From the sequence record NC_054910.1: a stretch of DNA of 64,000 nucleotides; one strand, written 5' to 3'. Both the position numbers and the translations under genes were made by a program. Every line of letters starts with the position of its first letter. Positions within the stretch are counted from its first letter, which is position 1. The DNA is from Escherichia phage EcNP1. Shown here piece after piece: positions 2,880 through 50,690 of this stretch. The notes under the pieces are model-generated. The model saw nothing but the letters and a program-made list of their open reading frames with translations. It was not told the DNA's origin and ran no database searches.

Positions 2880-3131
2880 TCATTCCTTCTCTCTGATGAT
2901 AATTACTTGATTTTGCTGTACAGATTTTTTAGTTTCACCCGCAATTGACCAAATAAAGGTAATAAACCAACCAATAATTGACCAGTTAAACAGTAAAGAC
3001 GTGAAAAAGATTCCTACTGTCGATTTTGACCCACGCATCAAGGCGATGAACCACGGAAGCATGTATATAATAATAGCCAACACGCCTGAAACTAAAACCA
3101 TAAAAATTGAACCTGCTACTAAAGTTTCCAT
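2880..3131 (-). CDS. imm: Imm superinfection immunity membrane protein
   Basis: 83 aa hydrophobic protein, same size and position as T4 Imm; RBS GAGGAA upstream of ATG. Confidence 0.85.
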   Translation of the reverse strand: METLVAGSIFMVLVSGVLAIIIYMLPWFIALMRGSKSTVGIFFTSLLFNWSIIGWFITFIWSIAGETKKSVQQNQVIIIREKE

Positions 3132-3138
3132 GTTTTCC

Positions 3139-3519
3139 TCACTTAGTCAAATTTTTTACACATGAATTATAAGAATTTACTACATACTCCATCGGAGCAT
3201 TTTTACCAGTACGCCATTGGTAATTATTAGCCCAATTTGCCCAAAGTTCAGCACAGTAGTTTTCAATTTTTTCTTCACGCGTAATCACATCTGAATTACG
3301 ATATGCTTGAGCAGATTCATCTGGACGAATAGCTTCGTCAAAATTCGCCTGCATTTGTTCTACTGTCTGTTTTGGAGCCTCTTTATAACACTTGACGTTA
3401 GGATTATAAAATTTGCTTGAACAGTTTACAATTTTTCCTACATCAGACTGATTTACTACTGGTCCTTGAGCTACACAACCAGTAAGACCCAATGCAATAA
3501 CCAAAATAGCGATTTTCAT
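3139..3519 (-). CDS. Predicted lipoprotein (lipobox LTGC)
   Basis: Internal start MKIAILVIALGLTGC with RBS GGAGAA; ORF-track start at 3708 would overlap gene 43 and the promoter. Confidence 0.7.
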   Translation of the reverse strand: MKIAILVIALGLTGCVAQGPVVNQSDVGKIVNCSSKFYNPNVKCYKEAPKQTVEQMQANFDEAIRPDESAQAYRNSDVITREEKIENYCAELWANWANNYQWRTGKNAPMEYVVNSYNSCVKNLTK

Positions 3520-3547
3520 TTCATTCTCCAAATCCGCATCAGTTGAT

Positions 3548-3585
3548 AGTTGTATAGTACCACAAAGGAACTGGGATGTAAACAG
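3548..3585 (-). promoter_or_regulatory. T4-type early promoter (-35 GTTTACA, -10 TACTAT)
   Basis: Plus-strand tgtaaac at 3577-3583 and tatagtacca block; member of the repeated early-promoter block. Confidence 0.7.
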
Positions 3586-3666
3586 TTTTGTGAAAAATTT
3601 TTTAATGAATTCCAGAGGTCCAGAATCATCTATTTTTCCTAAGTATAGATTTATATTACTTGTATG

Positions 3667-3687
3667 AAAAAGGGACCCGGAGGTCCC
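3667..3687 (-). terminator. Rho-independent terminator after gene 43
   Basis: Minus RNA GGGACCUCCGGGUCCC followed by UUUUU, 14 nt after gene 43 stop. Confidence 0.7.
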
Positions 3688-3700
3688 TAGATTTATTCTA

Positions 3701-6397
3701 TCAGCCAAACAGGAAGTCTAACGAAGCTTTTTCCTCATAGTCCATACCTGCCGATTCACACATGCCCGCAAGCGGTTTAACAAACGATTTTTGGAACAAA
3801 GTTGAGTAGTCAATCCAAGACAGTACATCAGAACGAATTTCTTTTGGAAGTTCTGTGCCCGACGGCCAAGCAATACACTTGTCACCAAATGGATTTCCCT
3901 CACGTAATGGAAGAACCATTACCTTATTTCCATCCAAAATTGGAGCTACACCTAAACCACTAACAGCTCGACGATAAGTTAGTACACCACGAATATGGAA
4001 CGGGCATTTAAACCCTGGCCAACCTTTATCATCATATTTCGCTATATCGTTCGCGGTTTTTACTTCAGCAATAACTTTATAATCAAGTTGACGATATTCT
4101 TTCTCAAAGTTCTTGTAGTATTCTTGGACAGACTCTTCGCCTTCCTGAAGAATACGACGAATACTTTCTTCGAGAGCTTCTTGTACTGCTTTTGGTGTTG
4201 AACTCTGCTGAGTTTCCATACCCATGATTTTTAGATGCGGTTCGGCAAATCGCTTATCTTCCATATCATAAACGTTCAGAGCATAACGTTTTTTCGCTTT
4301 CCAAAATCCACCAACACCCTTTGAACCAAGCGGAGGACAAGAAATAGCTTCACGGTCCATATGCATCAGATGCTCGCGGTTATTCATATAATCGCATAAC
4401 TCACGATATGCAACATCAATCATAGGTTCCATCTTTTTCTTACCGAACTGATTCATGAATTCAACTAAATCATTTTGTTCTTTAAAGCGATCAAGACCTA
4501 CTTTTTCAATAACTTTATCTACACAAACATATACCGAATCAGTATCACCTGCTGCGATGAAATCTTCACCATCAGTTCCACATACTTTATTCAGGTATTC
4601 ATTAATTTTACGAGCAATCCACTGAATACCAACTTGACCAAAAATTGTGATAGCAGTAGCATTTCGCAAATCATAGTAACGGAAATGAATATTACCAAGA
4701 GCACCATAAAGACTGTTGATAAGAATTTTACGGTTCAGCTGATTTGTGTTAGCAAGTGTAGCTGCTTTTTCACATTCTTCGATCAGACTATTAAGAACAG
4801 ATTCGGTGTAATTTGATAGTTCATTTAAGAAATCATCACTGAACTTAACATATCGTTCAACTTCTGGTTTAGTTGAACAAGACCCTGCGCCTTTCATAAT
4901 AATCTTTTTAATAGCTTCGGCATTCATTTCTTCAGCGAACATTTTCTTTTTCCAATCTTTACGCTGGAAAAATACTTTAGCGATTTCCTTTGGAATGATA
5001 CCTTCTTGGTGCTTATCATACATCCATCCATTCGGAGAGCAAGAATATTCATCACTTGGCTTAGGAGCTGTTCCTGCGATATATTCATGAATTGGATGAA
5101 CTTTAAACTGCCCACGAATAGTCTCAGGACTAATGTTAACCTGACGAATAATGCTAGGATACAGAGACGTCAAGTCAAAACTCATAATGTATCGACGAGC
5201 AATCGGTTTAGGTTCAAACACAAATGCACCTGGAAAACTCTGTTTAACGTGCGAACCTTGTTGAGGAATAACCTTATGTTCACCTTTCAGTGAGTTAAAA
5301 ATAATAGCATCCCAAGTTTTAATAGGACTCATTACACCAGAAAAAGGCATTTTAGCGTAATAAGACATACTTAAAACTAGATCGATAAACCCACGAATTT
5401 TATCAATTGCTTGAACTGATTCTACGTCAATAATGTTATAACTAATGTATCGTTGATGATTAGTCTCACGAAGTTTATTAATAGGACCATCGTACGGTAA
5501 TTTACCTTTTTTGGTTTCATGTTGAGCAACTGATTCCAAAGAGAACGATGGCAAATTAGTAAATGCGAATTTCTTGTACAAATCTAAATAATCAAGAATA
5601 GATACGCCATCAATAGAATAAATTTCTTTGCTACCGTACATATTTTGAATTAATTTAGATTTTACTCGACCGATTGGAGAGAAACGTTTCATACTGCGTT
5701 CACCGAGAACCATTTTAACACGATTCATGATATACGGAACGTCAAATCCCTCAATATTCCAACCGGTAAAAATAGCAGGTCGTTTCTGTTCCCAGAGATT
5801 AATATATTCCATGAGCATATCACGCTCATTATCAAATGGCATATAAATTACTCGGTCAAGAATTTCTTGAGGAACTTCATCACCACCTTCACAGTCAAGC
5901 TTAGCAGCTAACTTTGCATCCCATTTTGATACTGAACCGTACATTGAATTCAACAAATCAAAGACGTAAAAACGGTCGTCAATTGAATCATAATGAGTGA
6001 TAGCATCAATTTCATATTCTGCTTTCATTGGGTCAGGAAATTTATCACCAGTAACCTCAATGTCACAGTTAGCTACACGAACAAATTTTCGGTCATAAAC
6101 AATTTCTGAACCATATGTATCACTGATATAAGCGAGTTTAAAATCGTTCATACCAAGAGCTTCGAGACCGATGTCTTCCATTCGTTTCATCCAATCTCGT
6201 GCATCTTTCATTGATGGAAATTTTTGAGGAGCGCAATTTTTACCATAAATGTCTTTGTATTTTGACTCTTCCTTACAATGCCTAAACATAGTCGGAAGAT
6301 ATTCTACTTCACGAGTACGTTCCTTTCCATTTTCATCAATATAACGTTCAACAATATTATTTCCGACTGTTTCGATAGAGATATAAAATTCTTTCAT
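3701..6397 (-). CDS. 43: DNA polymerase
   Basis: 898 aa, same length as T4 gp43; family B polymerase motifs (e.g. YGDTDS); ATG at 6395-6397. Confidence 0.97.
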   Translation of the reverse strand: MKEFYISIETVGNNIVERYIDENGKERTREVEYLPTMFRHCKEESKYKDIYGKNCAPQKFPSMKDARDWMKRMEDIGLEALGMNDFKLAYISDTYGSEIVYDRKFVRVANCDIEVTGDKFPDPMKAEYEIDAITHYDSIDDRFYVFDLLNSMYGSVSKWDAKLAAKLDCEGGDEVPQEILDRVIYMPFDNERDMLMEYINLWEQKRPAIFTGWNIEGFDVPYIMNRVKMVLGERSMKRFSPIGRVKSKLIQNMYGSKEIYSIDGVSILDYLDLYKKFAFTNLPSFSLESVAQHETKKGKLPYDGPINKLRETNHQRYISYNIIDVESVQAIDKIRGFIDLVLSMSYYAKMPFSGVMSPIKTWDAIIFNSLKGEHKVIPQQGSHVKQSFPGAFVFEPKPIARRYIMSFDLTSLYPSIIRQVNISPETIRGQFKVHPIHEYIAGTAPKPSDEYSCSPNGWMYDKHQEGIIPKEIAKVFFQRKDWKKKMFAEEMNAEAIKKIIMKGAGSCSTKPEVERYVKFSDDFLNELSNYTESVLNSLIEECEKAATLANTNQLNRKILINSLYGALGNIHFRYYDLRNATAITIFGQVGIQWIARKINEYLNKVCGTDGEDFIAAGDTDSVYVCVDKVIEKVGLDRFKEQNDLVEFMNQFGKKKMEPMIDVAYRELCDYMNNREHLMHMDREAISCPPLGSKGVGGFWKAKKRYALNVYDMEDKRFAEPHLKIMGMETQQSSTPKAVQEALEESIRRILQEGEESVQEYYKNFEKEYRQLDYKVIAEVKTANDIAKYDDKGWPGFKCPFHIRGVLTYRRAVSGLGVAPILDGNKVMVLPLREGNPFGDKCIAWPSGTELPKEIRSDVLSWIDYSTLFQKSFVKPLAGMCESAGMDYEEKASLDFLFG

Positions 6398-18566: not shown

Positions 18567-18806
18567 TTAAGCCTTTTTATCAAGAACAGCATTCAGTTTG
18601 TTAGTAATTTTATCCAGACGCTCATTGAATTCGCTAGAAGATAAGCCTTTTTCTGGAGAAATCAAACTAATCACGAAAAATATAGCAATAAAAGGAATAA
18701 GAAAAATAGCACCAACTGCCATAAACAGAAAGAATGTTACAGTTGTAAGAAAATCAGCTAAACCTTTACGAAATTTATACATATTTACCCTTAATTGATT
18801 AACCAA
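18567..18806 (-). CDS. Small membrane protein
   Basis: ORF track 79 aa with hydrophobic core. Confidence 0.6.
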   Translation of the reverse strand: MVNQLRVNMYKFRKGLADFLTTVTFFLFMAVGAIFLIPFIAIFFVISLISPEKGLSSSEFNERLDKITNKLNAVLDKKA

Positions 18807-27841: not shown

Positions 27842-28249
27842 TCACTCAATTTCAATTTTACTAAATACACAGAATATGATTGAACAGACTACATAAGCAC
27901 CGCACACAGATTGAACTAATACCATCCCAAAGAACCAAACAATATTATCAAACAATGTCTGTTTTACGTCGAAAGGACGTAAACTTACAGTAATATTATC
28001 ACCTTTTTCTATTGAAGAATACATCTCTGGGGAAATATATTCACTAAATCTATAACCGTCTTTGAGTTCATATACGGCAATAAACGATAAACTAGACCCT
28101 TTTCCTTGTGTTCCTGTAATGGTATTAACTACAGTAACATCATAATCTTTATAATGCATATAATCATTAATTGCGTAATAACCGTATGCAACTACTACAC
28201 ATAAACAACATATCAATAAATTCAATCTTTTAATTATCAACTGTTTCAT
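27842..28249 (-). CDS. Membrane protein
   Basis: ORF track 135 aa, N- and C-terminal hydrophobic segments. Confidence 0.65.
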   Translation of the reverse strand: MKQLIIKRLNLLICCLCVVVAYGYYAINDYMHYKDYDVTVVNTITGTQGKGSSLSFIAVYELKDGYRFSEYISPEMYSSIEKGDNITVSLRPFDVKQTLFDNIVWFFGMVLVQSVCGAYVVCSIIFCVFSKIEIE

Positions 28250-34439: not shown

Positions 34440-34826
34440 TTATTCGAGGGAAAGAAGATATTTGCTCTGGTAAAACATTCCAGTAATATCATCTATCGTG
34501 CTTTGAATGGCTGGAGGCATTTCTTTATAAATGCTGTTAGATTGGTCTAGTATGCGATCAATCATTTTAATTGTGTCGGTAGGAAGTTTACTAGCATCTG
34601 GAATTGAAGGTGTGTATTTTCTACCAGAATACCCCAAATATTGCTCGCCAAATTTATCAATCAAATCTGGCAACTCAGAGAAAATAAAATCGTATGCCTT
34701 GTGTCTAACATAACTTTTAGTTTCAAAATGCGCAGAATGAAAATAAGCTTGTGCAGCCATTAATAAACCTAAGTATTCATCTGCCTTTGAAGGTTTTCCA
34801 CTTTGTGAAAAGTCGCTGAATTTCAT
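34440..34826 (-). CDS. Hypothetical protein (T4 rI.1 position)
   Basis: ORF track 128 aa. Confidence 0.75.
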   Translation of the reverse strand: MKFSDFSQSGKPSKADEYLGLLMAAQAYFHSAHFETKSYVRHKAYDFIFSELPDLIDKFGEQYLGYSGRKYTPSIPDASKLPTDTIKMIDRILDQSNSIYKEMPPAIQSTIDDITGMFYQSKYLLSLE

Positions 34827-35116
34827 TCAGTCTCCAATTTAATGTTCATAATTCTAGCGTATGATTGTGCCATCTCCGCGCCTCGTTCTATACATTCAAA
34901 ATCGGAAGAGCACGGGTCATTTTTATAGGTCGTTCGCATAAAACTATAGAACTGTTCAGATGATTCTACGCTTTTATTTTCAAAAAGCATATAAACATGT
35001 CTAATACCAGATTCCATAAATTTATCAAAATGAGGATCGACATTCGCTTCAATCGGTGGAGATAAAGCAAATGCTAATCCTAGCATGGCAAATAATGCCG
35101 TTGCTTTTAAGGCCAT
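34823..35116 (-). CDS. rI: Lysis inhibition regulator rI (signal peptide)
   Basis: 97 aa, matches T4 RI as recalled. Confidence 0.9.
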   Translation of the reverse strand: MALKATALFAMLGLAFALSPPIEANVDPHFDKFMESGIRHVYMLFENKSVESSEQFYSFMRTTYKNDPCSSDFECIERGAEMAQSYARIMNIKLETE

Positions 35117-36533: not shown

Positions 36534-36742
36534 AACCATGTAACCTTTAAGCAATATTCTTCTACATGTTGTTTACGACCTTTCCTATCAATAAAGGTAT
36601 ATTCAACGAATGTTCCAATATAGTCTTTATCTACATCATGAGGACTATTAATTGGGCATTTAGTACGGCAAATGCGTTCCCATTGACGAATAATTTCTGC
36701 TTTGTTTTTAGGATCAAACGGATGCGGGTAATGTACTTTCAT
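36530..36742 (-). CDS. Hypothetical protein
   Basis: ORF track 70 aa; ATG confirmed. Confidence 0.6.
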   Translation of the reverse strand: MKVHYPHPFDPKNKAEIIRQWERICRTKCPINSPHDVDKDYIGTFVEYTFIDRKGRKQHVEEYCLKVTWL

Positions 36743-37193
36743 AATCCACCACTATCAAATCAATATCAGGAGTAAACATGTCGATTAATTTAGAAACCTT
36801 ATCCCAATCACCGCCAGCAATACCACAACCTATGCGTGGAATGTAAATTACTGGTTTAAACAAAAGGGTTTCTGCCTGTAGATTTAATTCTATCATGCAG
36901 TTTACTAAAGCACCATAATCAAGATTAGGACCCGGTTCGTATTGCGTATACAGATTATAGCATATACCAAATCCTGTAGGATTATGTTTAAAAACAATAG
37001 ACATATCGCCTAATTTATCACGAGAACCATATTCAGTAGTGGTTTTATCTATTTCTAAAATTTTAGGATAAGCCCTTGCTAATTGACCCGCTACACCTGA
37101 ACCCATAGTATGAAAACAGTTGCACCCGTGCGCAATAATATTACCTTGAAGAAATAGGGCGACAATATCGCCCTTGATATATTTTACAATCAT
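36714..37193 (-). CDS. Macro-domain-like protein (predicted ADP-ribose binding/processing)
   Basis: 159 aa; motifs HGCNCFHTMGSGVAGQLA and IPRIGCGIAGGDW resemble macro-domain loops; ATGA overlap with upstream gene. Confidence 0.7.
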   Translation of the reverse strand: MIVKYIKGDIVALFLQGNIIAHGCNCFHTMGSGVAGQLARAYPKILEIDKTTTEYGSRDKLGDMSIVFKHNPTGFGICYNLYTQYEPGPNLDYGALVNCMIELNLQAETLLFKPVIYIPRIGCGIAGGDWDKVSKLIDMFTPDIDLIVVDYESTLPASV

Positions 37194-37531
37194 CTAGTAC
37201 TCAATCCTCGATTATAAGAATCTACCAAACGGTCAACCATTGAATGACAAGCGGCTTTATCTTTCTCCTCCGCAACTGAACATTCTAAGGTATTCCACTT
37301 TTTAGCATATCGTTTTAATAAAGTATCGTTCTTGTATCTGCTTGATTTATCTCTTTCTCCGTCTTTATATGCATATATTAATTTCTGCGCAAATTCAGCT
37401 TGGCATGCTTTATTTTTCCCACAATAATCCGCGGCAGTACGGTTTACATACTCTCTAATTTCAGTGTATGATGTATTTGCTAACGCAGAAAATGAAATTA
37501 ATCCTACACATAAAACCAAAATTTTAGTCAT
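37190..37531 (-). CDS. Small secreted protein (signal peptide)
   Basis: 113 aa; N-terminal MTKILVLCVGLISFSALA. Confidence 0.7.
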   Translation of the reverse strand: MTKILVLCVGLISFSALANTSYTEIREYVNRTAADYCGKNKACQAEFAQKLIYAYKDGERDKSSRYKNDTLLKRYAKKWNTLECSVAEEKDKAACHSMVDRLVDSYNRGLSTR

Positions 37532-38069
37532 TTACTATTTCCAACAGTTTATTATTTTTAAGGTAGTTAGCCTTTTCTAGGACTTCAGAAGCATATTTAG
37601 AACCTGCTTTAACATTCCATCCCGAATTATAAGAGGATATTGCCTTTCTTATATCGCCCTTATGTATATTTAACCAATAAGAAAGTTCAATGTACGCCCA
37701 GGAAGCTGAATTGGACCGTTTATTCAACATTCTTTTTATTTCAGCATCGGTCATATTATAACCAAGTTCCTTAACTCTTGCTCGCATGGTCGGCAAATAA
37801 TTTTGGAACATTCCATAGGCATGATGCTTTGGTTTAGATTTTAAATTAACTCCGGCAGAGCTTTCTTGCCATAAAATAGCAGCCATTATATGACCTAATC
37901 CGCTCTTGTGGATATTTTTATGTGTTTTATATTTTCCATCCTTGGAAAATTGTTCCCCGAATTGATACGCGTAACGCATGTTATCGAGTTGGACATTACT
38001 GAAAGTATGCTCGGAGCTATGTGCCATCATAGAAATGGCCAATAGACCAGCGAGTAGTGCTTTTCTCAT
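37524..38069 (-). CDS. Periplasmic lytic transglycosylase-like protein (SLT motifs)
   Basis: 181 aa; signal peptide; motifs WQESSAG, YGMFQ, SYNSG. Confidence 0.75.
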   Translation of the reverse strand: MRKALLAGLLAISMMAHSSEHTFSNVQLDNMRYAYQFGEQFSKDGKYKTHKNIHKSGLGHIMAAILWQESSAGVNLKSKPKHHAYGMFQNYLPTMRARVKELGYNMTDAEIKRMLNKRSNSASWAYIELSYWLNIHKGDIRKAISSYNSGWNVKAGSKYASEVLEKANYLKNNKLLEIVND

Positions 38070-38076
38070 GCTTACC

Positions 38077-38538
38077 TCATTGAGTTTTAATTACTGCTTT
38101 AGAAGCCTTTCCCGGTAAACGACGACTATTGATAATTGCCATCCTGCACTGAAGTGACGGGTCTTTGAACTTCGCATTAGGTTTACAAACTGTAAATCCA
38201 AGCCAAAGATTTCCATCTGTGATTTCTAAACGCCCAGGACGATATTCAACCCCATCAATAAAATCCTCATCAATGTCAGGCCGCGGAGGCATACTCAGGA
38301 ATTCATTAACTTCTAAAACATGGTCTTTTATTTTGTGGAATAATTCAAAAACATATGTCTCATCAATCTCCCGCTGAATTGCACGATCAAGAAGATGCTG
38401 AGAATATTTTAGATGAAACGATGAGACTCCTGCTGCTTTTGATGCCTCACGAATCTCATTGTTAATTTGACGAAACTCCGACTCAAAATGACGACGGAGT
38501 TTATTTCGACGGATAAAAACTTCTGTGTTGATAGTCAT
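38077..38538 (-). CDS. regB: RegB endoribonuclease
   Basis: 153 aa as T4 RegB; early promoter immediately upstream. Confidence 0.88.
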   Translation of the reverse strand: MTINTEVFIRRNKLRRHFESEFRQINNEIREASKAAGVSSFHLKYSQHLLDRAIQREIDETYVFELFHKIKDHVLEVNEFLSMPPRPDIDEDFIDGVEYRPGRLEITDGNLWLGFTVCKPNAKFKDPSLQCRMAIINSRRLPGKASKAVIKTQ

Positions 38539-38561: not shown

Positions 38562-38597
38562 AAAAATTATACCACAGTCAAGAGGAAAAGTAAACAG
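38562..38597 (-). promoter_or_regulatory. T4-type early promoter
   Basis: Plus aaattatacca...agtaaac (38589-38595). Confidence 0.6.
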
Positions 38598-50504: not shown

Positions 50505-50690
50505 TTATTCACCTTTAGAAATTTTATCCATAACGATAGCAATTAAACCAATTAAAAATGCTACTACAAGTGAAAACACATTTTCTGCTGTAGTTAATAA
50601 TCCGCATATAAATCCAACAAACATTGAAAAACTAAAAGCGGAAGCAGAAATTGCAATAGCAACATTTCGAATTAATTCACAGCGTTTCAT
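50505..50690 (-). CDS. Small membrane protein
   Basis: ORF track 61 aa, hydrophobic. Confidence 0.55.
   Translation of the reverse strand: MKRCELIRNVAIAISASAFSFSMFVGFICGLLTTAENVFSLVVAFLIGLIAIVMDKISKGE

Follow-up and report, generated by a model that had tools for sequence, protein, structure and literature searches.

The vs.1 and vs genes of T4-like phages may encode an early exported module of a lytic-transglycosylase-like protein and a small partner

Introduction

In the reference genome of bacteriophage T4, two adjacent genes between regB (upstream) and tk.4 (downstream) are listed as a 'hypothetical protein' (vs.1) and a 'valyl tRNA synthetase modifier' (vs). Here, we analyzed the corresponding pair in a 64,000-nucleotide stretch of Escherichia phage EcNP1 (NC_054910.1; this whole stretch is called the window) and propose, with a probability of roughly 0.6, that it constitutes an early exported module in which a small lytic-transglycosylase-like protein (Vs.1) and a disulfide-stabilized helical partner (Vs) act together in the cell envelope. 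At first sight, the pair is unremarkable: these are T4 accessory genes that have been annotated before and for which a domain prediction has been published. Both genes and the SLT prediction for vs.1 are already known: a marginal but conserved SLT match of vs.1 was described in six T4-like genomes (Nolan et al., 2006; PMC1524935), the same paper credits earlier PSI-BLAST results to the 2003 T4 genome review, and several GenBank records name vs.1 'transglycosylase SLT domain-containing protein'. What is added here for Vs.1 is a confident GH23 model, the invariance of its motifs, a predicted signal peptide that is conserved, and the strict pairing with vs. We did not find a discussion of Vs export or of its strict coupling to vs.1 in the searchable literature. 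The module would place a secreted early transglycosylase-like enzyme of a widespread family in a lytic phage that already holds lysozyme e and the gp5 tail lysozyme, and the evidence for export of Vs questions a textbook annotation that has been copied into hundreds of genomes.

The closest enzymes described in the host are the family-1 lytic transglycosylases of E. coli (Slt70 catalytic domain, MltE/EmtA, MltC and MltD), with which Vs.1 shares only about 15-18% identity. Unlike these, Vs.1 is devoid of a lipid anchor or accessory domain, is phage-encoded and early, and has an activity that is predicted from sequence. Small transglycosylases with dedicated partners are found in secretion systems (EtgA with EscI; VirB1, IagB, IpgF); EtgA, the transglycosylase of a type III secretion system, is controlled by the rod protein EscI. 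Vs has no sequence relation to EscI, no trans-envelope machine is known for Vs.1 and the interaction of Vs.1 with Vs is a proposal of this study. Within T4 itself, the small helical protein Spackle (Sp) inhibits the gp5 tail lysozyme, binding a muramidase-type domain in the periplasm. Like Vs, it is early, about 100 aa long and equipped with a signal peptide and cysteines, and it provides a precedent, in functional terms, for a regulator of the Vs kind. Sp is not encoded beside its target and is not homologous to Vs; a relationship was considered and rejected on a hhalign probability of 2% (Vs against T4 Sp).

Results

Identity of the two genes

At the DNA level, about 1.9 kb around both open reading frames (ORFs) match Escherichia phage vB_EcoM_Nami at 100% identity and other Tequatrovirus records (n=473) at 95-99%. 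By sequence, the window belongs to a T4-like phage and the two minus-strand ORFs are the orthologues of T4 vs.1 and vs. The initial annotation had read them as a secreted lytic-transglycosylase-like protein and a secreted small neighbor; both ORFs are present at the coordinates given there on the minus strand, and it had not recognized them as named T4 genes. The features of the pair are:

37524..38069, minus strand: vs.1 orthologue, 181 aa, predicted periplasmic single-domain GH23/SLT lytic-transglycosylase-like precursor
38016..38069, minus strand: predicted Sec signal peptide of Vs.1, residues 1-18, MRKALLAGLLAISMMAHS followed by S, cleavage between AHS and S
37860..37874, minus strand: motif I, LWQES, translation checked
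37863..37865, minus strand: codon of Glu69, putative catalytic acid (WQES), invariant in 34 homologues
37797..37814, minus strand: motif II, GMFQNY, corresponding to GLMQ of family-1 lytic transglycosylases, translation checked
37620..37634, minus strand: motif III, SYNSG, counterpart of AYNxG, translation checked
37190..37531, minus strand: vs orthologue, 113 aa, annotated 'valyl-tRNA synthetase modifier', PHROG 1256, T4 NP_049724
37478..37531, minus strand: predicted Sec signal peptide of Vs, residues 1-18, MTKILVLCVGLISFSALA followed by N, cleavage between ALA and N

Vs.1 and its T4 orthologue (NP_049725, UniProt P13311, PHROG 600) do not differ materially: they are equal in length and lie in the same place between regB and vs, and the best-matching protein cluster (P0001) is 99% identical. 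Vs matches PHROG 1256 with E=7.5e-40 and is 94-96% identical to T4 vs (NP_049724, UniProt P13310); the difference between 113 and 115 aa results from a 2-residue indel inside the signal peptide. The vs start overlaps the vs.1 stop by 8 nt (ATGACTAA) and lacks a good Shine-Dalgarno sequence, and because of these two features translation of vs is likely coupled to that of vs.1.

Vs.1 has the motifs and the predicted fold of GH23 lytic transglycosylases

The three SLT motifs initially noticed in the larger ORF are found at their places, and a Pfam search agrees: the SLT profile (PF01464) matches residues 61-154 of Vs.1 with E=4.8e-5 and 23.4 bits, above the gathering cut-off of 21.3 bits. Among the 34 aligned family members, 31 have an SLT match, the best with E=1.3e-7. 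Invariant across this alignment, which extends down to 40% identity, are Glu69, Gly86/Phe88/Gln89/Asn90/Tyr91 and Tyr147/Asn148/Gly150, and Ser70 is nearly so. An AlphaFold2 model based on the 34 sequences was obtained with a predicted local distance difference test score (pLDDT) of 88 and a predicted template modeling score of 0.82, and it is confident except for the first 20 residues. A Foldseek search of the PDB with this model returned MltD, Slt, Slt70, a GH23 chitinase and the phi6 lysin, the top matches with a probability of about 1. The model represents the all-alpha, lysozyme-like fold of GH23 lytic transglycosylases and goose lysozymes. Taken together, motifs and model describe Vs.1 as a divergent, minimal single-domain GH23/SLT protein in which the catalytic signature is intact.

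With respect to the type of chemistry, g-type lysozymes carry Asp residues in the hairpin after the catalytic Glu. On inspection of the 34-member alignment no acidic residue was conserved after Glu69, which as a sequence feature favors a transglycosylase over a hydrolase. The predicted mature Vs.1 comprises 163 aa (18.8 kDa, isoelectric point 9.65).

The Vs.1 family comprises 77 protein clusters at 90% identity, which reach down to 40% identity to the query. Matches were found by tblastn in 2083 phage records, including Straboviridae of many hosts, Ackermannviridae (Kuttervirus) and Felixounavirus, and 444 phage records hold a vs.1 copy that is at least 99% identical. NCBIfam has a model for neither Vs.1 nor Vs. 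Outside Straboviridae, Kuttervirus EP75 also encodes a secreted Vs.1-like protein (L007, 2453..3070), and in Felixounavirus tootiki a secreted Vs.1-like gene lies directly after rIIA/rIIB and is annotated as a 'putative lysin' (L008, 2501..3049).

Both proteins carry signal-like N-termini

Signal peptides were called by a crude heuristic of our own and not by SignalP; it asks for a basic n-region, a hydrophobic core and small residues at -3 and -1. Of the 147 ATG-initiated ORFs in the window with a length of 60 aa or more it passes 7, including the known periplasmic RI (rI, 34823..35116). Since so few ORFs pass, it is unlikely by chance that vs.1 and vs both do so side by side. The other positive ORFs, all on the minus strand, are 3139..3519, which has a lipobox (MKIAILVIALGLTGC), 18567..18782, 27842..28249 and 50505..50690. 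The signal peptides that had been ascribed to the two ORFs at the outset are thereby supported for the window, and they are conserved among relatives. For Vs.1, a signal-like N-terminus is present in 34/34 aligned homologues and in 47/48 loci from IMG/VR contigs, and the model has a pLDDT of 56-59 at residues 1-20. For Vs, 47/48 IMG/VR loci are signal-positive and the pLDDT is below 50 at residues 1-19.

In the Vs family, the N-terminal 20 or so residues vary in sequence and length at constant hydrophobicity and the remainder is conserved, which is the usual pattern of signal peptides; in the Vs and the Vs.1 family alike, the N-termini differ in sequence and are kept in character. In four Vs homologues a lipobox LSGC (MKKLFVLLVVFALSGC...) stands in place of the type-I signal (L039, 3549..3875; L040, 2495..2821; L043, 3549..3875; L054, 3549..3875), and these proteins would, as judged from this motif, sit outside the cytoplasm on a lipid anchor. 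Further homologues possess N-terminal membrane anchors of greater length. The only other methionine of Vs is M98, and no further internal start exists, so that an isoform of Vs lacking the signal is unlikely.

Vs is a small cysteine-containing protein of T4-like phages

The predicted mature Vs has 95 aa, a mass of 11.0 kDa (precursor 12.9 kDa) and an isoelectric point of 9.05. Cys37, Cys43, Cys84 and Cys95 are conserved throughout the family and form two sequence-local pairs. The AlphaFold2 model is of moderate confidence (pLDDT 68) and consists of four helices (15-37, 41-60, 69-84 and 89-110), with the cysteine pairs at the ends of the predicted helical hairpins. Sequence and model together suggest that disulfides C37-C43 and C84-C95 probably staple the two hairpins. 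Both a sequence search of the PDB and a Foldseek search with this moderate model were empty, and no fold was assigned.

All Vs homologues found carry the precomputed Pfam domain PF26829. A hidden Markov model built from 25 Vs sequences was searched exhaustively against 1.84 billion protein representatives and retrieved 24 genuine relatives, all of them Vs-like and 77-134 aa long, and no identifiable cellular homologue. Two long matches (P0126 and P0127) were discarded as spurious, since they are translated repeats.

The vs gene follows vs.1 in every T4-like locus examined

We compared 53 T4-like loci from several Straboviridae genera, namely 48 IMG/VR contigs sampled for a Vs.1 relative (43-100% identity), Klebsiella phage JD18, Acinetobacter phage AC4 and three loci anchored on Vs. 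In all 53, vs lies immediately downstream of vs.1, in support of the early idea that the smaller protein is a secreted partner of the larger one. In 47 of the 48 IMG/VR loci the Vs-family ORF starts between -8 and +3 nt from the vs.1 stop; in the remaining one (L042) a shortened Vs-family ORF of 61 aa is found 141 nt downstream, and Vs of L022 is also truncated. The proteins downstream of vs.1 in JD18 and AC4 are secreted, 106-109 aa long and share the cysteine spacing. They are homologues of Vs (BLASTP 2e-9 with the four cysteines aligned; hhalign probability 96%), and homologues of this type widen the Vs family by several hundred phage records. The order regB-vs.1-vs was also present in 3/3 loci anchored on Vs (Krischvirus, Gualtarvirus and Roskildevirus).

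The gene that follows vs varies: it is either tk.4 or, in 19/48 IMG/VR loci, a third secreted protein (PHROG 4957). The latter is 130-146 aa long, has a signal peptide ending in ...NAWEKLPG and occurs neither in this window nor in T4; examples are JD18 (L006, 3363..3755), AC4 (L005, 3321..3746) and L017 (3866..4267). Such loci encode three predicted exported proteins in a row.

Mean pairwise amino-acid distances in the 40 IMG/VR loci containing all four genes were 0.57 for Vs, 0.30 for Vs.1, 0.36 for RegB and 0.40 for Tk.4, i.e. Vs changes at about double the rate of Vs.1. Such a pace would be in keeping with a small exported protein that meets a varying host or phage component at an interface.

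Expression and fitness effects in T4

In T4, vs and vs.1 both give early RNA and both proteins were detected (PMC9697503, supplement), in line with the initial placing of the pair in the early region. In the T4 transposon study HIDEN-SEQ, both genes were non-essential. In liquid LB, their insertions were about 10-fold rarer than those of neighbors (means of 26.6 for vs and 22.6 for vs.1, compared with 179 for regB, 290 for tk.4 and 652 for vs.3), and a second experiment gave 33.9 for vs and 15.0 for vs.1. In M9-glucose, vs was the most depleted gene (log2 fold change -2.19, p<1e-5), and vs.1 had a log2 fold change of -0.87 (p=0.0055, adjusted p=0.155). The HIDEN-SEQ authors confirmed the phenotype by a vs deletion, which impaired plaques specifically in minimal medium; they interpreted the defect via the annotation of Vs as a protein that modifies valyl-tRNA synthetase (ValRS), that is as an effect on translation or nutrients, and called the role of ValRS modification unknown. 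According to their table S8, regB insertions were mildly enriched in M9 relative to LB (log2 fold change +1.17, p=0.049, adjusted p=0.80), a shift opposite to that of the downstream genes vs.1 and vs.

Discussion

A possible envelope module

In the module that we propose, the regB-vs.1-vs-tk.4 unit would be transcribed early, and Vs.1 would be synthesized with a Sec signal that can be cleaved, and would reach the periplasm as a free single-domain enzyme of about 19 kDa. If Vs.1 works like Slt70 and MltE, Glu69 would donate a proton to the beta-1,4 bond between N-acetylmuramic acid (MurNAc) and N-acetylglucosamine of murein, whereupon the C6 hydroxyl of MurNAc would attack, with a 1,6-anhydroMurNAc end as the result. 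Vs, whose translation would be coupled to that of vs.1, would likewise be exported as a basic four-helix protein of 11 kDa with two disulfides, and it would most probably act with Vs.1 in the envelope as a regulator, inhibitor or targeting factor rather than in the cytoplasm alone. The module is dispensable and yet confers a measurable fitness gain on T4, larger in minimal medium; as for its purpose, we can only guess at a local or regulated remodeling or loosening of the sacculus during infection. The proposal builds on the identity of the genes, the conservation of fold and motifs, the signal-like N-termini and the strict synteny, and it fits poorly with a purely cytoplasmic Vs.

Several points weigh against the exported module. 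Searches of the PDB with the Vs.1 sequence and profile gave nothing significant, which is why the comparison of folds was needed; the best match was a goose-type lysozyme (E=0.36), which aligns at motif III. A hhalign comparison of the Vs.1 family with E. coli MltE was not significant either (probability 0.3%); its motif register is sensible, with Glu69 on the catalytic Glu64 and AYGMFQ on AIGLMQ. The signal peptides of both proteins rest on the heuristic described above, and the searchable literature contained no report of a biochemical activity or functional study of Vs.1. Tight overlaps are normal among T4 early genes, and vs also overlaps tk.4, to which it is functionally unrelated. A mirror-tree comparison of Vs.1 and Vs, with RegB and Tk.4 as references, gave no co-evolution beyond the shared phylogeny (partial r=0.23) and is uninformative either way. 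Next to the Vs.1-like genes of Aeromonas phage AS-gz, of Kuttervirus and of Felixounavirus there is no Vs gene, indicating that Vs is accessory to Vs.1 rather than a subunit it must have. The transposon phenotype of vs.1 could be due to polarity on the translationally coupled vs; the HIDEN-SEQ authors argue against widespread polarity, and the weaker effect of vs.1 in M9 (-0.87 versus -2.19) argues against full polarity on vs. Finally, T4 e mutants do not lyse despite the presence of vs.1, so that any activity of Vs.1 must be weak, local or restrained and Vs.1 is not a bulk lysin.

Alternative explanations

In the classical account, Vs is the cytoplasmic factor tau, which binds the ValRS of E. 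coli and changes its stability; the adjacency to vs.1 would then reflect gene packing, and the N-terminus would be no working signal or would permit partial export. Tau is said to have had a mass of about 10 kDa in the work of Muller and Marchin from 1977; this value suits the cleaved Vs of 11.0 kDa better than the precursor of 12.9 kDa and speaks against the account. We consider this account unlikely, although it has a long record on its side: it is the annotation of the T4 RefSeq entry and of hundreds of phage records, the defect of the vs deletion in minimal medium was read by its authors as a translation or nutrient effect, the overlap of vs extends to the unrelated tk.4, and the product of vs was reported to bind and modify E. 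coli ValRS (Muller and Marchin 1975/1977, as cited in PMC8076793). This last point also counts against the exported module. The T4 annotation places Vs in the cytoplasm, whereas the signal peptide, the lipobox variants, the four cysteines in two local pairs and the position after a gene for a secreted enzyme point to the periplasm or a membrane surface. The cytoplasmic location that Vs needs in order to reach ValRS is thus not the predicted one: the signal-type N-terminus is kept family-wide, proteins with the lipobox must be anchored outside the cytoplasm, and vs offers no internal start codon from which a cytoplasmic form could arise. In addition, vs follows vs.1 in 53/53 loci while the other neighbors vary, and vs.1 insertions share the fitness signature of vs. 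A bolder extension of the exported module, tentative and in our view somewhat doubtful, is that Vs is not active on ValRS in the living infected cell but is an exported, disulfide-bonded inhibitor, activator or tether of Vs.1, the 'modification' of ValRS being a post-lysis binding artefact of a basic periplasmic protein of 11 kDa, or a secondary effect. If true, the defect that vs mutants show in minimal medium would stem from the envelope rather than from translation.

Other explanations concern Vs.1. It may have the GH23 fold without being a murein lytic transglycosylase, for instance as a goose-type hydrolase, an enzyme for another glycan or a non-catalytic murein binder. The marginal Pfam score, the lack of a significant sequence match to any solved transglycosylase and the failure of e mutants to lyse would all agree with this, which we nevertheless regard as quite improbable: the catalytic Glu-Ser and motifs II and III persist in 34 sequences down to 40% identity, which points to retained catalysis, and no acidic residue is conserved where g-type lysozymes hold Asp. 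Alternatively, Vs.1 could be an auxiliary lysis enzyme of the signal-arrest-release (SAR) endolysin type, held by an uncleaved, weakly hydrophobic N-terminal tether and freed upon depolarization by the holin. Ala, Gly and Ser abound in its h-region (ALLAGLLAISMMA), as they do in SAR domains, and the homologue in one Felixounavirus record is called a putative lysin. Against this, vs.1 is early and lies between regB and an anti-defense gene, away from the holin and endolysin genes, the AHS/S cleavage site is plausible, the gene is non-essential in HIDEN-SEQ, and lysis of T4 depends on gene e. At the level of prediction, Vs.1 thus shows neither an uncleaved anchor nor late expression nor the context of a lysis cassette, and a SAR-type role is very improbable.

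Neighboring genes and annotation of the locus

The genes and sites that flank the pair are:

38077..38538, minus strand: regB (endoribonuclease), Pfam REGB_T4 with E=1.4e-68, upstream gene of the same transcription unit
38566..38594, minus strand: sigma-70-type promoter-like site upstream of regB, TTTACT-17-TATAAT with extended -10 TG, consensus match
36714..37193, minus strand: tk.4, macro-domain gene, Pfam Macro with E=5.8e-8, overlaps the vs stop by 4 nt (ATGA)

A RegB homologue is found within the flanks (about 3 kb per side) of 47/48 IMG/VR vs.1 loci, and regB is directly upstream of vs.1 in the annotated loci of AS-gz, GEC-3S, PSTRCR_121 and IT22. The promoter-like site is a candidate early promoter for regB-vs.1-vs-tk.4; in a promoter scan, the total count of promoter-like sites in the region was not above that in shuffled sequences. 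The product of tk.4 was named AdfM, an anti-DarT2 (anti-defense) factor, in a 2025 preprint (10.1101/2025.11.20.689424).

About 15 nt past the vs stop and within the first codons of tk.4, a GC-rich hairpin of 8 bp (AGGGCGAU-AUU-GUCGCCCU) is followed by a U-rich tail (37156..37174, minus strand; folding z-score -2.2). It could serve as an attenuator or as an mRNA-stabilizing end after vs.

The GenBank entry MZ502380, which is identical to the window (L001, locus 3015..4839), carries shifted or erroneous product names, with 'endoribonuclease' for vs.1, 'endonuclease' for regB, 'valyl-tRNA synthetase' for vs and 'RNase III inhibitor' for tk.4. Errors of this kind recur across many phage records.

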